In this document: positions 735 through 5,884 of the stretch, in pieces | How positions within the stretch are numbered: the first letter of the stretch is position 1 | Layout: every line of letters starts with the position of its first letter | Origin: an uncultured Acidobacteriota bacterium | GTDB taxonomy: Bacteria > Acidobacteriota > UBA6911 | Reading direction: 5' to 3' | Length of the DNA: 64,000 nucleotides | NCBI GenBank assembly: GCA_963843575.1 | Contig: CAWJKZ010000013.1 | Coordinates: forward strand, 192,001-256,000 | Position numbers and translations under genes: made by a program | The notes under the pieces: model-generated | Told to the model about the DNA's origin: nothing | Seen by the model: the letters and a program-made list of their open reading frames with translations, nothing else | Databases searched by the model: none

Positions 735-866
735 AAAAAAATCAGCGCCCTTCCTCCGGGAAGAAGAAGGGCGCCGCTCGGGTGTAGGTGGGTATTAAGG
801 GTGGAAAGGAGGTTGTATGTCGGAACGATTCTCCTTCTTTGGGTTGTACTTTGCTCTATCCGACAT
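735..866 (-). ncRNA. Putative sigma54-dependent small RNA, copy A
   Basis: Paralog of 1060-1162. Shares 5' TCGGATAGAGCAAAG, core AACCTCCTTTCCACCC and terminator GGCGCCCTTCTTC-TTCCCG-GAGGAAGGGCGCT followed by a U-run. -24/-12 motif immediately upstream. Confidence 0.65.
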
Positions 867-873
867 TAGTGGA

Positions 874-889
874 AGCACACTTTGCGCCA
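874..889 (-). promoter_or_regulatory. sigma54 (-24/-12) promoter for sRNA copy A
   Basis: TGGCGCAAAGTGTGCT on the - strand with GG-N10-GC spacing. Predicted start (~863-866) coincides with the start of homology to copy B. Confidence 0.55.
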
Positions 890-1059
890 TCGGCTTCGCC
901 TGCTGCCGAATTGTGCCATAATCGTTTTCTGCTAAATCACTTACGAAAGAACACGTCGGTTGGGATGCAGCGGAAGTACAGCAGAATTTGGGTTTACTCA
1001 CCCGATGAGCGGGTTATTTGGCACAAATTTGGCCTGATGCCGCGCCTGCATGTCCCGAC

Positions 1060-1162
1060 AAAAAATCAGCGCCCCTCCTCCGGGAAGAGGAGGGGCGCCG
1101 CTCGGGTGTAGGTGGGTATAAGGGTGGAAAGGAGGTTTATAACTCCTTTGCTCTATCCGAGA
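1060..1162 (-). ncRNA. Putative sigma54-dependent small RNA, copy B
   Basis: CTCGGATAGAGC-AAAGGAG-TTATAAAC-CTCCTTT-CCACCC...CCCGAGC then terminator GGCGCCCCTCCTC-TTCCCG-GAGGAGGGGCGCT followed by a U-run. Compensatory change in the terminator stem relative to copy A. Confidence 0.65.
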
Positions 1163-1171
1163 TTATCTATT

Positions 1172-1188
1172 AGCAAGCCCTCATGCCA
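1172..1188 (-). promoter_or_regulatory. sigma54-like promoter for sRNA copy B
   Basis: TGGCATGAGGGCTTGCT on the - strand. Both boxes are near-consensus but spacing is GG-N11-GC, one base too long; the GGG run could be an indel error. Confidence 0.45.
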
Positions 1189-1448
1189 GTTTGAATGGGC
1201 TGGTTGGTATTCCTGTAAAGTTGGCAACAGCAAATCTTACCGCTGTATTTCGCCGCAGCCTCAAATCGGCGCTCGGTCTTTTTCGGGTGATCTGAGCCAA
1301 CAACGGTGGTAAAACACCCACTCACACGTTCTAAGTGCGCGGTTCCGCTTGAATGCCATTCTCGTGCCTGGCAGCGGGGTCGTGTAAACCTTTCGGTTGC
1401 TTCAATGTATCGGGGCGGCATGATAACCTATTACGGTGGCCGACATAT

Positions 1449-2330
1449 ATGAAGCGTGACACGGAGCAGTACAGTAGTGGTGTGCGGAGGGTTCTCGTCA
1501 TTACCCTTGCGCTGAACCTCGCTGTCGTGGCAGGGAAGCTGTTCGCCGGCATCCTGGCCGGTTCCCTGAGCGTGGTCAGCGACGCGCTGCACTCCTCGGC
1601 GGATTCGCTGAACAACATCGTCGGGATCTTTATAATCCGGGTCGCGAGCACGGCCCCCGACAAGGAGCATCCTTACGGCCACCACAAGTACGAGACGCTG
1701 GGAGCCTTCGGAATCGCGTGGTTCCTCCTTGTGACCGCCTTCCAGGTGGGTCAAGGCGCGGTCAAGCGGCTGCTGGGTTGGACACAGTCGGACGTCGAGG
1801 TCACCTCGCTGACGCTCGGAATTATGGTGGCAACACTTCTTGTGAACTTTTTCGTGTGGTTTTACGAGCGCCGGCGTGCGCGTGAGCTCGACAGCGCATT
1901 CCTGATGGCCGACTCGCAGCACACCCTGAGCGATATCGGGGTAAGCACGTCGATCCTGATCGGTCTGCTGCTGCTGCGCTTCGGGATCATCGACTTGGAC
2001 GCCGTGCTGGCCCTTGCGGTCGCCGGCATCATCACGTTCGCAGCCTACCAGATATTCGCGAGCACCATCCCCGTCCTGGTGGATCGGGCGCCGGTGGCGC
2101 CGGAGTTCGTCGCCGAAATCGTCCGCTCGACCCCGGGGGTGGAGTCCGTGCACGGTATCATGTCGCGCGGGGTGCCCGGCATGACCTTCATTTCCATGCA
2201 CCTGGTGGTGACTCCGCTGAGCACGCCCGAAGCCCACGCCATCACCGAGGATGTGGAGCGCAGGCTGGCGGAAAAGGTCGGTCCTTGCGAGGTGACGATC
2301 CACATCGAACCCGATGACAGGAGTTCCTAA
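1449..2330 (+). CDS. Cation diffusion facilitator (CDF) family transporter, FieF-like
   Basis: SDALHSSAD, APDKEHPYGHHKYETL and DSQHTLSD motifs; six TM helices; C-terminal HIEP dimerisation domain. Confidence 0.92.
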   Translation: MKRDTEQYSSGVRRVLVITLALNLAVVAGKLFAGILAGSLSVVSDALHSSADSLNNIVGIFIIRVASTAPDKEHPYGHHKYETLGAFGIAWFLLVTAFQVGQGAVKRLLGWTQSDVEVTSLTLGIMVATLLVNFFVWFYERRRARELDSAFLMADSQHTLSDIGVSTSILIGLLLLRFGIIDLDAVLALAVAGIITFAAYQIFASTIPVLVDRAPVAPEFVAEIVRSTPGVESVHGIMSRGVPGMTFISMHLVVTPLSTPEAHAITEDVERRLAEKVGPCEVTIHIEPDDRSS

Positions 2331-2382
2331 CGGGGCCGGCGGCGGGGCAGATCCCATCGTTGACGGCCGGCGTGAACCTTCC

Positions 2383-4484
2383 ATGATGAACCCGGGCAAG
2401 CCGAAACCAGACCTCCTGCGTGCGGACTCGATCGAGTTTGCGGACGTGTTCAATGCCGATCCCGTATCGGGCCGCATCACGCTCGGGAACGACCGCTACG
2501 TGATGTTCGATGCGGAGGCTGTCGGCAAGATGCGCCGGGAGCTGATCGACAATCTCGGGTGGGAGGTTGCGCGCGGCATCCTCGAGCGTGTGGGTTACCA
2601 GTCCGGACGAAACGACGCCCGTCAACTGGGGGCGCGCTACAGTTGGCCGTCCGATGAGGAGTGGCTCCGGGCCGGGCCTCGCCTGCATTTCCTGGAAGGG
2701 ATGGTCAAGGTTCGGGTGCGCGAACTGGACTTCGCACGCGGGGAACGCCGGTTTCGCATGAAGGGCGACTGGATCGAGTCCTACGAAGCCGAGCAGCACC
2801 TGAAGCAATACGGCGTCGGGTCCAGACCGGTCTGCTGGTCGCTCGAGGGCTACGCCACAGGGTATGCGAGCGAGTTTTTCGGCGAGGACATCGTCTGCTT
2901 CGAGGTCAGCTGCCGGGGCAAGGGCGACCCGGTTTGCAGCTTCGAGCTGCGGCCCTCCCGGGAGTGGGGCGGGGCCGCGCTCCCGATGCAGGAGATGCTG
3001 GCGGCGGTGCGCTTCACCGAGAGGTTCGATCGCTGTCTGCGCTCCATCAGTGAAATGGGGTGCGAGCTCGAACAGAGCTCCCTCGACGCGATTGTCACCA
3101 CCGACGCCAGGGGGATGATCACCTCGTGCAGCCAGGGAGGAAGCGAGCTCCTCGGCCTGCTGCCGGGAGAGGCGGTCGGGAGGCCGGTAAGCGCATTCTA
3201 CGCCAGGGGGCGCGCGGAGGCGGCGCGCCTCATGGAGCGCCTCCGACGCGAGGGCCGCATCCGCTACTATCTCACCGATATCATCACGGCCGGCGGCCGC
3301 AAAACCCCGATCGCCCTGGCGGCGTCGGCGATCAAGAACGCGCTCGGCCACGTCGTCGGTACTATCGGGGTGGCCCACAACCTCACCGAGATCCGGCGGC
3401 TCGAGGATGAGCTCGCCGCCAAGAACAGGTTCATGGCCAATATCCTGCAGGATTCGGCCGACGCGATCATCACGATGGACCCGGACGGCACCATCACGTC
3501 CTGGAACCGCGGCGCGGAATCCATCTTCGGCTATCCCGCCGACGAGGTGCTGGGCCGGTCCATCGAGGTCATCGTTCCCGCCGATCTACTGCGCGGCCAA
3601 CGAACTGGAACGGATCGCGCAGCGCGTCAGGAGCTCACGGGCGCGGTCCGCAACTACCAGACCGAGCGCATGACGAAGGACGGCCGGCGGCTCCAGGTGA
3701 TTTTCACCCGCACGGCGATCCGCGACGAAACCGGGCGCGTCGTCGGCAGTTCCGCGGTCCTGAAGGACGTCACCACGTTCCGGAACCTGGAACGGCAGCT
3801 TGCCGACGCCGAGCACCTGGCGACCCTGGGAGAGCTCTCGGCCGGGCTGGCGCACGAGATCAAGAACCCGCTCGCCGGCATCAAGGGCGCGATCGATGTC
3901 ATCCGCGACTCGCTCCCTGTCAACCGACCTGCACCGGGACGTGCTCGGGGACGTGTTGCACGAGGTGAACCGGATCGACAGGATCGTGCGGGACCTGCTG
4001 AACTATGCCAAGCCGAAGCCCCCCTCGCTCAACGCCATCGCGCTCCCGGAGGTGGCGCAGAGGCTGGTCGCCATGGCGCGCAAGTCCCCGAAGACCGAAG
4101 GCGTCTCGATCCGAGCTCGAGCAGTCCGGGGACATCCCCGGTTTCACGGGGGACGAAACGCAGCTCGAACAGGTGCTGCTGAACCTTCTGCTGAACGCCC
4201 AGAGCGCCGTCTCCCCCGGGGGCCACATCCTCGTCCGGCTGGCGTTCGAACCCGAGGAGCTGACGATCCGGATGGAGGTGGCGGACGACGGGCCGGGCAT
4301 ACCGGACGAGATCCGGAAACGCATCTTCCAGCCGTTTTTTACGACCCGGACGGAGGGGACCGGGTTGGGGCTGGCAACTTGCCTCAAAAACGTGCAGTAT
4401 CATGGCGGGACCATCAACGTGTTCAGTGCGCAGGGTCAGGGGACGCGGTTTGTCGTCACCTTGCCGCTGCTTTGTCGCTTTTAG
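2383..4484 (+). CDS. Sensor histidine kinase with XylR-N/V4R, two PAS, HisKA and HATPase domains (frameshifted near 3590-3630, 3920, 4110)
   Basis: V4R-like PVCWSLEGYATGY...EVSCRGKGDPVCSF; PAS repeats DAIITMDPDGTITSWNRGAE; H-box LAHEIKNPL; N, G1, F and G2 boxes (QVLLNLLLNA, DDGPGI, FQPFFTT, GTGLGL) spread over three frames. Confidence 0.85.
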
Positions 4485-4496
4485 GCGATCTGACGC

Positions 4497-5884
4497 ATGC
4501 CCAAGGAAACGATACTCGTAGTCGACGATGAACGCCTCGTGCGCTGGTCGCTCCAGCAGAAGCTCGAGCAGTGGGGCTATCACGTCAGCCTCGCCGAGGA
4601 TGGCGCCACGGCGCTGGGCCGCGTCCAGCTCGACAATCCGGACCTGATCACCCTCGACGTGAAGCTTCCCGGATATGACCGGGATCGAGGTCCTGTCGGA
4701 GCTGCGCAACCGCAACGTGCACGTGCCCGTGATCGTGATCACGGCCTTCGGCGTGGTCGACGACGCCGTGCGCAGCCTCAAGCTCGGCGCCTACGATTTC
4801 ATCGAGAAGCCGATCAACTTCGAGAAGCTGGAGAATTCCGTCCGCAACGCCCTGGAAACGCGCCGGCTGCGCACCGAGGTCGCGCGCACGCACGAAATCC
4901 AGCGCAGCGAGTTCAGCGTCGACCGGATCATCGGCGTCTCCGACCACATCCGGGAGGTCCGCGAACTGATCAAGAAGATCGCCGGCAGCGAGGCTTCGAC
5001 CATCCTGATCCAGGGGGAGAGCGGGACCGGCAAGGACCTCGTCGCCCACGCCATCCACTACGAGTCGACGCGCCGCGACCGCCCCTTTTTCGCCATCAAC
5101 TGCGCCGCCATCCCCGAAAACCTGATGGAGTCCGAGCTGTTCGGCCACGAAAAGGGAGCCTTCACCGACGCCCGCTCCCAGAAAAAGGGGATGTTCGAAA
5201 TGGCCGACGGCGGCACCCTGTTCCTGGACGAGGTCAGCGAAATGACCCTCGGGATGCAGGCGAAGCTGCTGCGGGTCCTCGAAGGGCAGTCCTTCCGGCG
5301 CGTCGGCGGCGTCAAGAACATCAACGTCGATGTGCGCGTGATCGTCGCCTCCAACCGCAATCTCGAGGATGCCGTGCGGACCTCGAGGTTCCGGCAGGAC
5401 CTCTATTTCCGGCTCGCCATCATCCCCGCTGACCCTGCACCCGCTGCGGGAACACAAGGACGACATCCCGGCGCTGCTCGAGCACTTCATCCAATACTAC
5501 AACCAGAAATTCCGGAAGAGCATCCAGGGGCTCACGAAAGACGCCGAGGAACTGCTCCTGAACTACGACTGGCCCGGCAACATCCGCGAGCTCAAGAACG
5601 CCATCGAGAGGGTCATGATCCTGGCGGACGGAAACCGGGTGGCTTCGAAATACCTGCCGATCCGGATCTCCGAGGGGGGAGTGCTCCCCGTGCCGATGGG
5701 AGACGGGCAGGGCAACGGCGGCATCCAGCTGCCGGCCGGCGGCACTTCGCTCTACGACGTCGAACGCGAACTCATCCGCCAGGCGCTGGAACAATCCCGG
5801 GGCAACAAGACCACCGCAGCCCGTCTCCTCCGCATCACCCGCGACACCTTGCGCTACAAGGTGAAAAAGTACAACCTGGACTGA
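4497..5884 (+). CDS. sigma54-dependent response regulator, NtrC/AtoC family (frameshifted near 4670 and 5425)
   Basis: REC domain (ILVVDDE...LDVKLP), Walker [39 protein letters not shown], Fis-type HTH at the C-terminus. Confidence 0.9.

Follow-up and report, generated by a model that had tools for sequence, protein, structure and literature searches.

In Myxococcus, the small RNA (sRNA) Pxr is the output of PxrK/PxrR, and in Vibrio the Qrr RNAs are the output of LuxO. Sigma-54 promoters, marked by -24/-12 elements, fire only when a bound enhancer-binding protein activates them. The Qrr RNAs contain a long, absolutely conserved stretch that is used for pairing, and one of the qrr genes adjoins the activator gene luxO. 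The Qrr promoters of the Vibrionaceae carry a pair of palindromic LuxO sites, located within about -175 to -60 (PMC10162802); a sigma-54 promoter and an enhancer region have been predicted for the Pxr gene of Myxococcus xanthus and other myxobacteria, with the NtrC-like gene pxrR and the kinase gene pxrK adjoining it (PMC5684412); and paralogous Pxr copies occur in some lineages (PMC5568312). Here we describe two tandem predicted sRNA genes, copy A and copy B, in a 64,000-nucleotide (nt) stretch of DNA (hereafter referred to as the window) from an uncultured Acidobacteriota bacterium (assembly GCA_963843575.1, contig CAWJKZ010000013.1, positions 192,001 to 256,000 of the forward strand). As far as our database and literature searches reach, they represent a previously undescribed sRNA family that is restricted to one family of soil Acidobacteriota within the class Terriglobia.

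Two related RNA genes and their relatives

Copy A (736..863, minus strand, about 128 nt) and copy B (1060..1161, minus strand, about 102 nt) were delimited from their sequences, with the fold as additional evidence for copy B. A covariance model built from an alignment of 23 copies from 20 genomes scored them at 154.7 and 104.2 bits, respectively. In copy A, the 5′ UCGGAUAGAGC is followed by a hairpin (hairpin 1), a C-rich single strand and a terminator; copy B agrees with it in the 5′ end and the C-rich strand and likewise has a terminator, but the loop of its hairpin 1 is short. The start of copy A was placed near 863, 12 nt past the C of the -12 element at 875, and its end at the U-run 741-735; the predicted start of copy B is near 1161.

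A first-pass annotation of the window, made from the sequence without database searches, had proposed two related elements on the minus strand. The copies indeed share an ungapped block of 82 nt (736-817 against 1060-1141, 84% identity) and a 5′ block of 20 nt (849-868 against 1146-1165, 95%), and BLAST aligned them with gaps at 95% identity over 78-79 nt (E 1.7e-28). Comparison of the sequences also agrees with its statement that the 5′ end, the core and the C-rich strand are common to both. A third copy is absent from the 6.68-Mb assembly by BLAST, the remaining matches having E values above 0.1.

Copy A ends in an intrinsic terminator (735..776, minus strand) with a 15-bp stem in the consensus fold, a loop and a run of 7 U. 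Four of the 15 pairs change on both sides across the family, a number reached by 3 of 500 shuffles, while slid controls gave 1-3. G+C-rich stems of 12 bp lie at 745-756/763-774 in copy A and at 1069-1080/1087-1098 in copy B, where 6 U follow. Read from the sequence, the two stems differ, as the annotation had it, by one U-A in place of C-G, with both sides changed, and by one U-G in place of C-G.

The first-pass annotation had suggested a covariance model search of Acidobacteriota genomes, and this search found homologs in 20 of 51 genomes of the source family, spread over 7 of its 11 genera (9/9 genomes in one genus and 5/30 in another); none of 86 genomes from 21 other families of the class was matched. 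Relatives have one or two copies per genome, at one syntenic site. BLAST with copy B as the query gave identities of 88-93% over the 3′ 80 nt in same-family genomes, with a tally of 18 positive genomes out of 36, one of which (G015) represents a 24-nt chance match that the model did not confirm, and no close match in 24 genomes of other families. An exact 23-mer from the invariant part of the RNA was found in 17 stretches across 185,579 species genomes (one per species), all of them titled Acidobacteriota, Acidobacteria or Terriglobia, and in 58 metagenome stretches, 10 of which have two tandem copies. The metagenome set comprises 59 distinct copies, and the genome and metagenome sets combined comprise 68 distinct near-full sequences.

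The first-pass annotation could not assign the RNAs to a named family, and this was upheld. No Rfam 15 family, Acido-1 and Acido-Lenti-1 included, reached its gathering threshold anywhere in the window, and cmscan of positions 400-1500 at E values up to 10 returned, on the copies, only chance-level hits far under the gathering cut-offs (Pseudomon-1, 16.4 bits against a cut-off of 50; ar14, 14.6 against 58.8; CcsR1, 13.7 against 65.3; UCA1, 11.9 against 80). Full-text literature searching retrieved no paper on such an RNA.

The 5′ domain and the loop of hairpin 1 take at least four forms among the 68 distinct sequences. The long form, whose loop is AAUCGUUCCGACAUAC and whose 5′ end is GGAUAGAGCAAA, accounts for 50 of the 59 distinct metagenome copies, and short forms with a small loop, to which copy B belongs, account for the other 9; a short form like copy B is also present in a same-genus genome and at one metagenome locus. 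Further variants include forms with another 5′ end and one minimal metagenome form without the AAGGAG arm. The first-pass annotation had described a 30-nt insertion in copy A. This polarity has to be reversed: of the 23 genome copies, 20 retain the AAUCGUUCC loop, 17 of these at full length, and since the long form is the common one across the family, copy A did not gain these nucleotides. Copy B is a tandem duplicate and a deletion derivative, having lost about 27 nt that comprised the loop and part of the 5′ domain.

It is hardly credible, and has been largely refuted, that the element is no functional RNA but a repeat or mobile element, a small protein gene or the leader of a downstream gene. 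Copy A does hold a 23-codon frame starting with ATG, and a true repeat resembling repetitive extragenic palindromic (REP) elements directly adjoins the RNA genes at 489-681. However, the ATG is missing in most relatives, and the conserved part undergoes 1-nt length changes (CAACC/CAAACC/CAAAACC and CCCU(U)(A)AAUACCC), so the frame is not kept; judged from these sequences, the RNA is non-coding. As to a repeat, no genome has more than two copies of the RNA, always in the same syntenic place, in contrast to the 563 BLAST pieces of the REP-like element. The first-pass annotation had itself named a known repeat or miniature inverted-repeat transposable element (MITE) as an origin that would speak against its proposal, and the two copies in the source genome are not the many expected of a dispersed REP or MITE. 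The terminator is followed by a convergent gene and not by a co-oriented one, and the promoter, the upstream palindrome and the terminator are all conserved.

The REP-like element, which lies between the RNA genes and a beta-barrel-like gene, is unrelated to the RNA. It consists of nested inverted repeats with arms of 41 nt and 27 nt on a 20-nt hairpin, GTCCGGGCT(TC/GA)AGCCCGGAC, and the genome contains 246 exact copies of two versions of this hairpin. Spurious microRNA-type cmscan hits arose because of it.

Promoters, upstream palindromes and the adjoining operon

Copy A has a sigma-54-type -24/-12 promoter at 889-874 on the minus strand (TGGCGCAAAGTGTGCT; TGGCGC-N5-GTGCT), with the canonical GG-N10-GC spacing. 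The corresponding element of copy B, at 1188-1172 on the same strand (TGGCATGAGGGCTTGCT; TGGCAT...TTGCT), separates GG from GC by 11 bases, where 10 are canonical. Thus, the assignment of both promoters to the sigma-54 type in the first-pass annotation holds for copy A, whereas that of copy B is one base too long. Short copies of relatives have TGGCACGAGGGTTGCT (in a same-genus genome, with canonical spacing) and TGGCATGAGGGTTGCC at this place. A canonical GG-N10-GC lies 26-29 nt before GGAUAG in 19 of the 23 genome copies, and a sigma-54-like element occurs at a fixed distance in 53 of the 59 distinct metagenome copies (for most long forms, -78 to -81), against a rough chance expectation of about 5. 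The order of promoter, core and terminator is kept in relatives, in accordance with the sibling, terminator-ended sRNAs with sigma-54 promoters that had been proposed. The source genome encodes rpoN (Sigma54_DBD, 199.7 bits, contig C14). In a crude genome scan for a sigma-54 promoter with an upstream palindrome, copy A was the only convincing instance.

Upstream of the promoters lie palindromes with the consensus TGGGT-N6-ACCCA, which we regard as putative activator sites. The proximal palindrome of copy A is at 989..1004 (CGGGTGAGTAAACCCA), with a weaker second site about 21 nt beyond it (about 1010-1026); that of copy B is at 1284..1299 (TGGCTCAGATCACCCG, 2 mismatches), with a distal site at 1305-1320 (TGGGTGTTTTACCACC). 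With up to 2 mismatches allowed, the palindrome is present in 20 of the 23 genome copies, 17 of which have it at -141 to -145 from GGAUAG, and in 41 of the 49 metagenome copies that have enough upstream sequence. In the three genome copies with no promoter, the palindrome is missing as well; one of the genomes concerned is without the candidate activator described below.

The RNA is divergent from an operon encoding a PAS histidine kinase and an NtrC-type regulator, in the window as well as in 11 of 12 relatives' 20-kb loci. In the window, the sensor histidine kinase gene occupies 2314..4481 on the plus strand (Pfam XylR_N, V4R, PAS and HisKA, then HATPase in other frames), and the gene for the NtrC-type, sigma-54-dependent response regulator follows at 4497..5881 on the same strand (Response_reg and Sigma54_activat). 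The intact regulator of a relative has a receiver domain (REC), a sigma-54 AAA+ domain, a lid and HTH_8; it scores below every NCBIfam equivalog cut-off, the best scores being those of AtoC, NtrC and ZraR. The first 58 residues of the receiver domain (window 4497-4670) are 86-100% identical across genera and 100% identical in four relatives' loci. The sensor part of the kinase is variable, XylR_N and V4R being present in some genomes and missing in others.

Regulator orthologs (at least 83% identity; best paralog, 55%) were found in 29 of the 51 family genomes. Among the genomes with the RNA, the regulator is present in 18 and absent from 2; among those without the RNA, it is present in 11 and absent from 20. 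We attach no statistical test to these counts, because the genomes are kin. Of the two genomes with the RNA but not the regulator, one is fragmented, and a contig of just 2.4 kb carries its RNA. In the second, which is 99% complete, neither the promoter nor the palindrome of the RNA copy survives; it is a natural control that fits the model. This co-location and co-loss suggest that the NtrC-type regulator is most likely the cognate activator acting at the palindrome. The activator sites and the adjoining kinase/NtrC-type operon, which are the strongest evidence on how the genes are controlled, had been missed by the first-pass annotation, whose overall interpretation is supported in part.

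Between the sRNA genes and the kinase gene lies a gene for a cation diffusion facilitator (CDF; 1446..2330, plus strand; Pfam Cation_efflux and ZT_dimer). It occupies this place only in the source genus and one other genome, 2 of the 12 relatives' loci by tblastn.

On the other side of the RNA genes, downstream of and convergent to them, is a porin-cytochrome-like cluster (contig C13, 187279-192440, ending at window position 440). It consists of two genes for decahaem cytochromes (10 CxxCH motifs each; 681 and 309 amino acids) and, some 20-odd nt further on, a gene for a beta-barrel-like protein of 718 amino acids, with no Pfam match in its last 139. The cytochrome/beta-barrel trio stands beside the RNA in 10 of 13 loci, with an octahaem gene nearby on the other strand, and no strong -24/-12 element precedes the cytochrome operon. 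This position by a multihaem cytochrome/porin cluster hints at a link of the RNA to redox or extracellular electron transfer physiology.

RNA anatomy, proposed function and rival explanations

The most conserved part of the RNA is an invariant module at 777..813 (minus strand), in which the 10-nt ACCUCCUUUC (813-804) runs into the unpaired C-rich strand CCACCCUUAAUACCCACCUACACCCGAG (804-777), as seen in the 23 genome copies and the 68 distinct sequences. The 3′ end of the 16S ribosomal RNA (rRNA) of the source genome reads ...GGAUCACCUCCUUUCU, and its tail contains the identical 10 nt, as expected from the anti-Shine-Dalgarno (anti-SD) core that the first-pass annotation had pointed out. Across the 68 sequences, little or no variation occurs in AAGGAG, CUCCUU, the C-rich strand and the base of the terminator.

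The RNAalifold consensus consists of two helices, hairpin 1, which pairs (G/A)AAGGAG with CUCCUUU, and the terminator, with the C-rich strand unpaired between them. Hairpin 1 of copy A (805..837, minus strand), which is also present in the minimum-energy folds, pairs GAAGGAG (837-831) with CUCCUUU (811-805), and its loop AAUCGUUCCGACAUACAAC is nearly invariant among long forms. In copy B, AAAGGAG (1149-1143) pairs with CUCCUUU (1134-1128) across a short loop. The masking of the core by an AAAGGAG hairpin, described by the first-pass annotation for copy B, is thus seen there, but it is not confined to it: in the predicted folds, an AAGGAG hairpin masks the core in both copies. An 8-bp 5′ stem proposed for copy A, AUGUCGGA/UCCGACAU, did not withstand comparison. 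It is absent from both the minimum-energy fold of copy A and the consensus fold, has only 3-5 bp in relatives, and has its first bases at or before the predicted start.

Starting from the family, layout, promoter, palindrome and synteny that are observed, we infer an activator, a pairing mechanism and a class of targets. The interpretation that we favor, and hold to be reasonably probable, is that of a sigma-54-driven sRNA family serving as two-component output, similar to Pxr and Qrr and probably pairing with G-rich ribosome-binding sites. Sigma-54 RNA polymerase would transcribe each gene from its -24/-12 promoter on activation by an enhancer-binding protein bound about 115 bp upstream, most likely the divergent NtrC-type regulator, so that the RNA would be the direct output of the adjoining two-component system. 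The working part would be the invariant 3′ module of about 37 nt, in which the 10-nt copy of the 16S anti-SD is followed by the unpaired C-rich strand. The C-rich strand would pair with G-rich ribosome-binding regions of target mRNAs and block their translation, and the invariant, Shine-Dalgarno (SD)-like AAGGAG arm would partly mask the anti-SD copy.

In favor of transcription, contigs from metatranscriptome runs of 4 studies cover 730-860 and little else of the region 600-1300, in one run as short, adapter-flanked contigs with a word depth of up to 334, which gives a weak hint that the family core exists as RNA in soils and sediments. A number of observations weigh against the favored interpretation, beginning with transcription and control. 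Neither the strand nor the ends of a transcript can be read from such assembled contigs, DNA may be present in the libraries, and one low-depth contig extends into the promoter region, to 992. Copy B was matched at 88% likeness or more by no contig of four runs, which is not evidence of its silence. In two lineages (genomes G073 and G061, loci L032 and L043), the sRNA lies beside the kinase gene and has neither a -24/-12 element nor the palindrome; about 55 nt upstream is a sigma-70-like TTGAAA-17-AATAAT, after which come a perfect hairpin and a stretch rich in U, an arrangement that may reflect a promoter swap or a longer precursor that gets processed.

The regulator, in turn, is found without the RNA in the 11 genomes counted above. 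In the nine of their loci that were read, no RNA was seen next to the kinase gene; the kinase flanks of G013, whose contig ends inside the kinase gene, and of G071 were left out, that of G016 spans 218 nt only, and for G002, where the kinase query gave no match, the regulator served to locate the flank. In these genomes, other targets must therefore exist for the regulator. In the window itself, the kinase and the regulator each read in three frames against the intact relative by tblastn, with four frameshifts (near 3918 and at 4113-4150 in the kinase gene; near 4666 and 5424 in the regulator gene) that are single-base insertions relative to a same-genus genome, the second of them near 4113. 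The extra base in the copy B promoter is a fifth such insertion, and no break occurs in about 6 kb of flanking CDF, FG-GAP and porin-like genes. The broken genes and the mis-spaced promoter may be assembly indel errors, or the system may be decaying or inactive in this genome.

Further points of this kind concern the RNA and its partners. There is no covariation for or against hairpin 1, in which 6 of the 7 pairs are the same throughout, and its pairing is a prediction. The Hfq model of Pfam matched nothing in the source genome, which is 88% complete; weak Sm-like matches to it occur in 48 of the 51 family genomes, 34 of them over the cut-off, and the U tail of the sRNA has 6-7 U. Above all, limited searches revealed no conserved complementary site in mRNAs. 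A genome-wide duplexfold scan of the 39-nt module against 58,198 start windows gave thousands of strong but non-specific duplexes, as read from a genome of 64% G+C with G-rich partners and with no shuffled-control distribution. Exact complement words of at least 11 nt gave 130 hits, near the chance level. At the starts of the porin-like gene and both cytochrome genes, pairing with the RNA was no better than with shuffled RNA (8 tests in 3 genomes, z -0.05 to +2.61), and the start regions of the kinase or CDF genes, read by eye in 12 genomes without scoring, share no site. Among 13-mers complementary to the C-rich strand or the loop, only the RNA genes themselves and 2 and 7 stray sites, respectively, were recovered, the 7 loop-complement sites lying in coding-like sequence.

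One candidate emerged from these searches and was set aside. A DUF6335 gene (contig C25, 218347-218790) could form a 19-bp pairing, with one bulge and one G-U, between CCUCCUUUCCACCCUUAAU and the region over its SD. This site has no counterpart in the 5′ regions of 9 homologs, same genus included, and because the pairing is not conserved it is probably due to chance or strain-specific.

With no target found, the mechanism rests on anatomy and analogy. In particular, the silencing of GGAGG ribosome-binding sites, as put forward by the first-pass annotation, is a proposal for which five kinds of target search returned nothing conserved.

The failure to find a conserved mRNA target is also what would be expected if the RNA titrated a protein, CsrA or another binder of single-stranded RNA, instead of pairing with mRNAs. 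The protein would then bind the RNA at its long invariant single strand and at the invariant stretches that contain GGA. The approximately 37 nt that are unpaired and invariant across genera exceed what most seeds need, GGA motifs are present at the invariant 5′ end (GGAUAG) and in AAGGAG, and CsrA is encoded in the source genome (80 bits). However, known CsrA sponges carry many GGA motifs in loops, and this RNA has just two or three, one of them inside a stem. The short forms, moreover, retain the C-rich strand even though the loop and some of the 5′ domain are gone, and C-rich strands opposite G-rich ribosome sites are a common type of sRNA seed. We regard titration of a protein as unlikely.

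The anti-SD copy raises another alternative, in which the RNA acts at the level of the ribosome, either as a decoy of the 16S tail that competes for strong SDs or through engagement of the 30S subunit by the AAGGAG arm, with a broad shift in translation. The 10-nt identity with the 16S 3′ tail of the genome's own rRNA, the invariance of both SD:anti-SD-like arms of the hairpin even where the loop is replaced, and the lack of any single conserved target accord with such a role. Nevertheless, the predicted fold has the anti-SD copy in a stem, very high abundance would be required of a stoichiometric decoy, and one metagenome variant dispenses with the AAGGAG arm, making ribosome-level action, in our estimate, very unlikely. 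We consider it quite unlikely that the self-masked anti-SD copy is the main, perhaps the only, direct output of the sigma-54 two-component system beside the porin-cytochrome (decahaem-decahaem-beta-barrel) cluster. On that account it would open when the kinase fires, and the RNA would compete with 16S rRNA for strong SD sites or engage the 30S subunit via AAGGAG; translation would then be re-weighted broadly, not via a few targets.

Comparison with known systems

As far as full-text literature searching shows, no regulatory RNA of the Acidobacteriota, an abundant phylum in soil, had been tied to a regulator before. The preferred reading, a two-component output that pairs with mRNAs, would add an independent example from a third phylum of the succession from two-component system through sigma-54 to sibling sRNAs that is known from Vibrio and Myxococcus. 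The case is well delimited: the type of promoter is defined, there are candidates for the activator site, the sensor and the regulator, the working module is sharply invariant, and natural variants are on hand in the long, short, minimal and promoter-swapped forms. These elements and variants make it directly testable in any family member that can be cultivated, or in a heterologous host.

The CcsR/cuckoo RNAs, RsaE and the alphaproteobacterial ar14 resemble the RNA in having unpaired C-rich motifs able to pair with G-rich ribosome-binding sites. In RNAs of the CcsR/RsaE/ar14 type, the motif lies in hairpin loops, and they are not known to be sigma-54 dependent. The sub-threshold cmscan matches to CcsR1 and ar14 reflect C-rich composition, and their scores fall far below the gathering cut-offs, so the RNA is not a member of either family.

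With the Qrr RNAs, it shares promoters of the sigma-54 type with two upstream palindromes, which are putative activator sites in the Acidobacteriota RNA, and the occurrence of one to several sibling copies. A long conserved stretch, which would serve for pairing here too, and a place beside the gene of the activator, here a candidate, are further likenesses. It differs from them in having no Rfam match, in its palindrome, which is TGGGT-N6-ACCCA as opposed to the TTGCAWWWTGCAA of Qrr, and in its fold of one hairpin, a single strand and a terminator.

Pxr is the closest known system. In both cases, an sRNA gene with a predicted sigma-54 promoter and a putative upstream enhancer-binding region stands beside genes for an NtrC-like regulator and a histidine kinase; the targets of Pxr are likewise not known (PMC11928866). 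The two are nevertheless unlike in sequence and structure, Pxr not being listed by cmscan of 400-1500 even at E values up to 10. They belong to different phyla, the Acidobacteriota RNA is divergent from its operon whereas the Pxr gene lies downstream of the regulator gene, and the invariant module of the Acidobacteriota RNA carries a copy of the 16S anti-SD. The architecture is thus held in common with Pxr and Qrr, but the sequence and the fold are not, so that the RNAs described here make up a new family of a known design.

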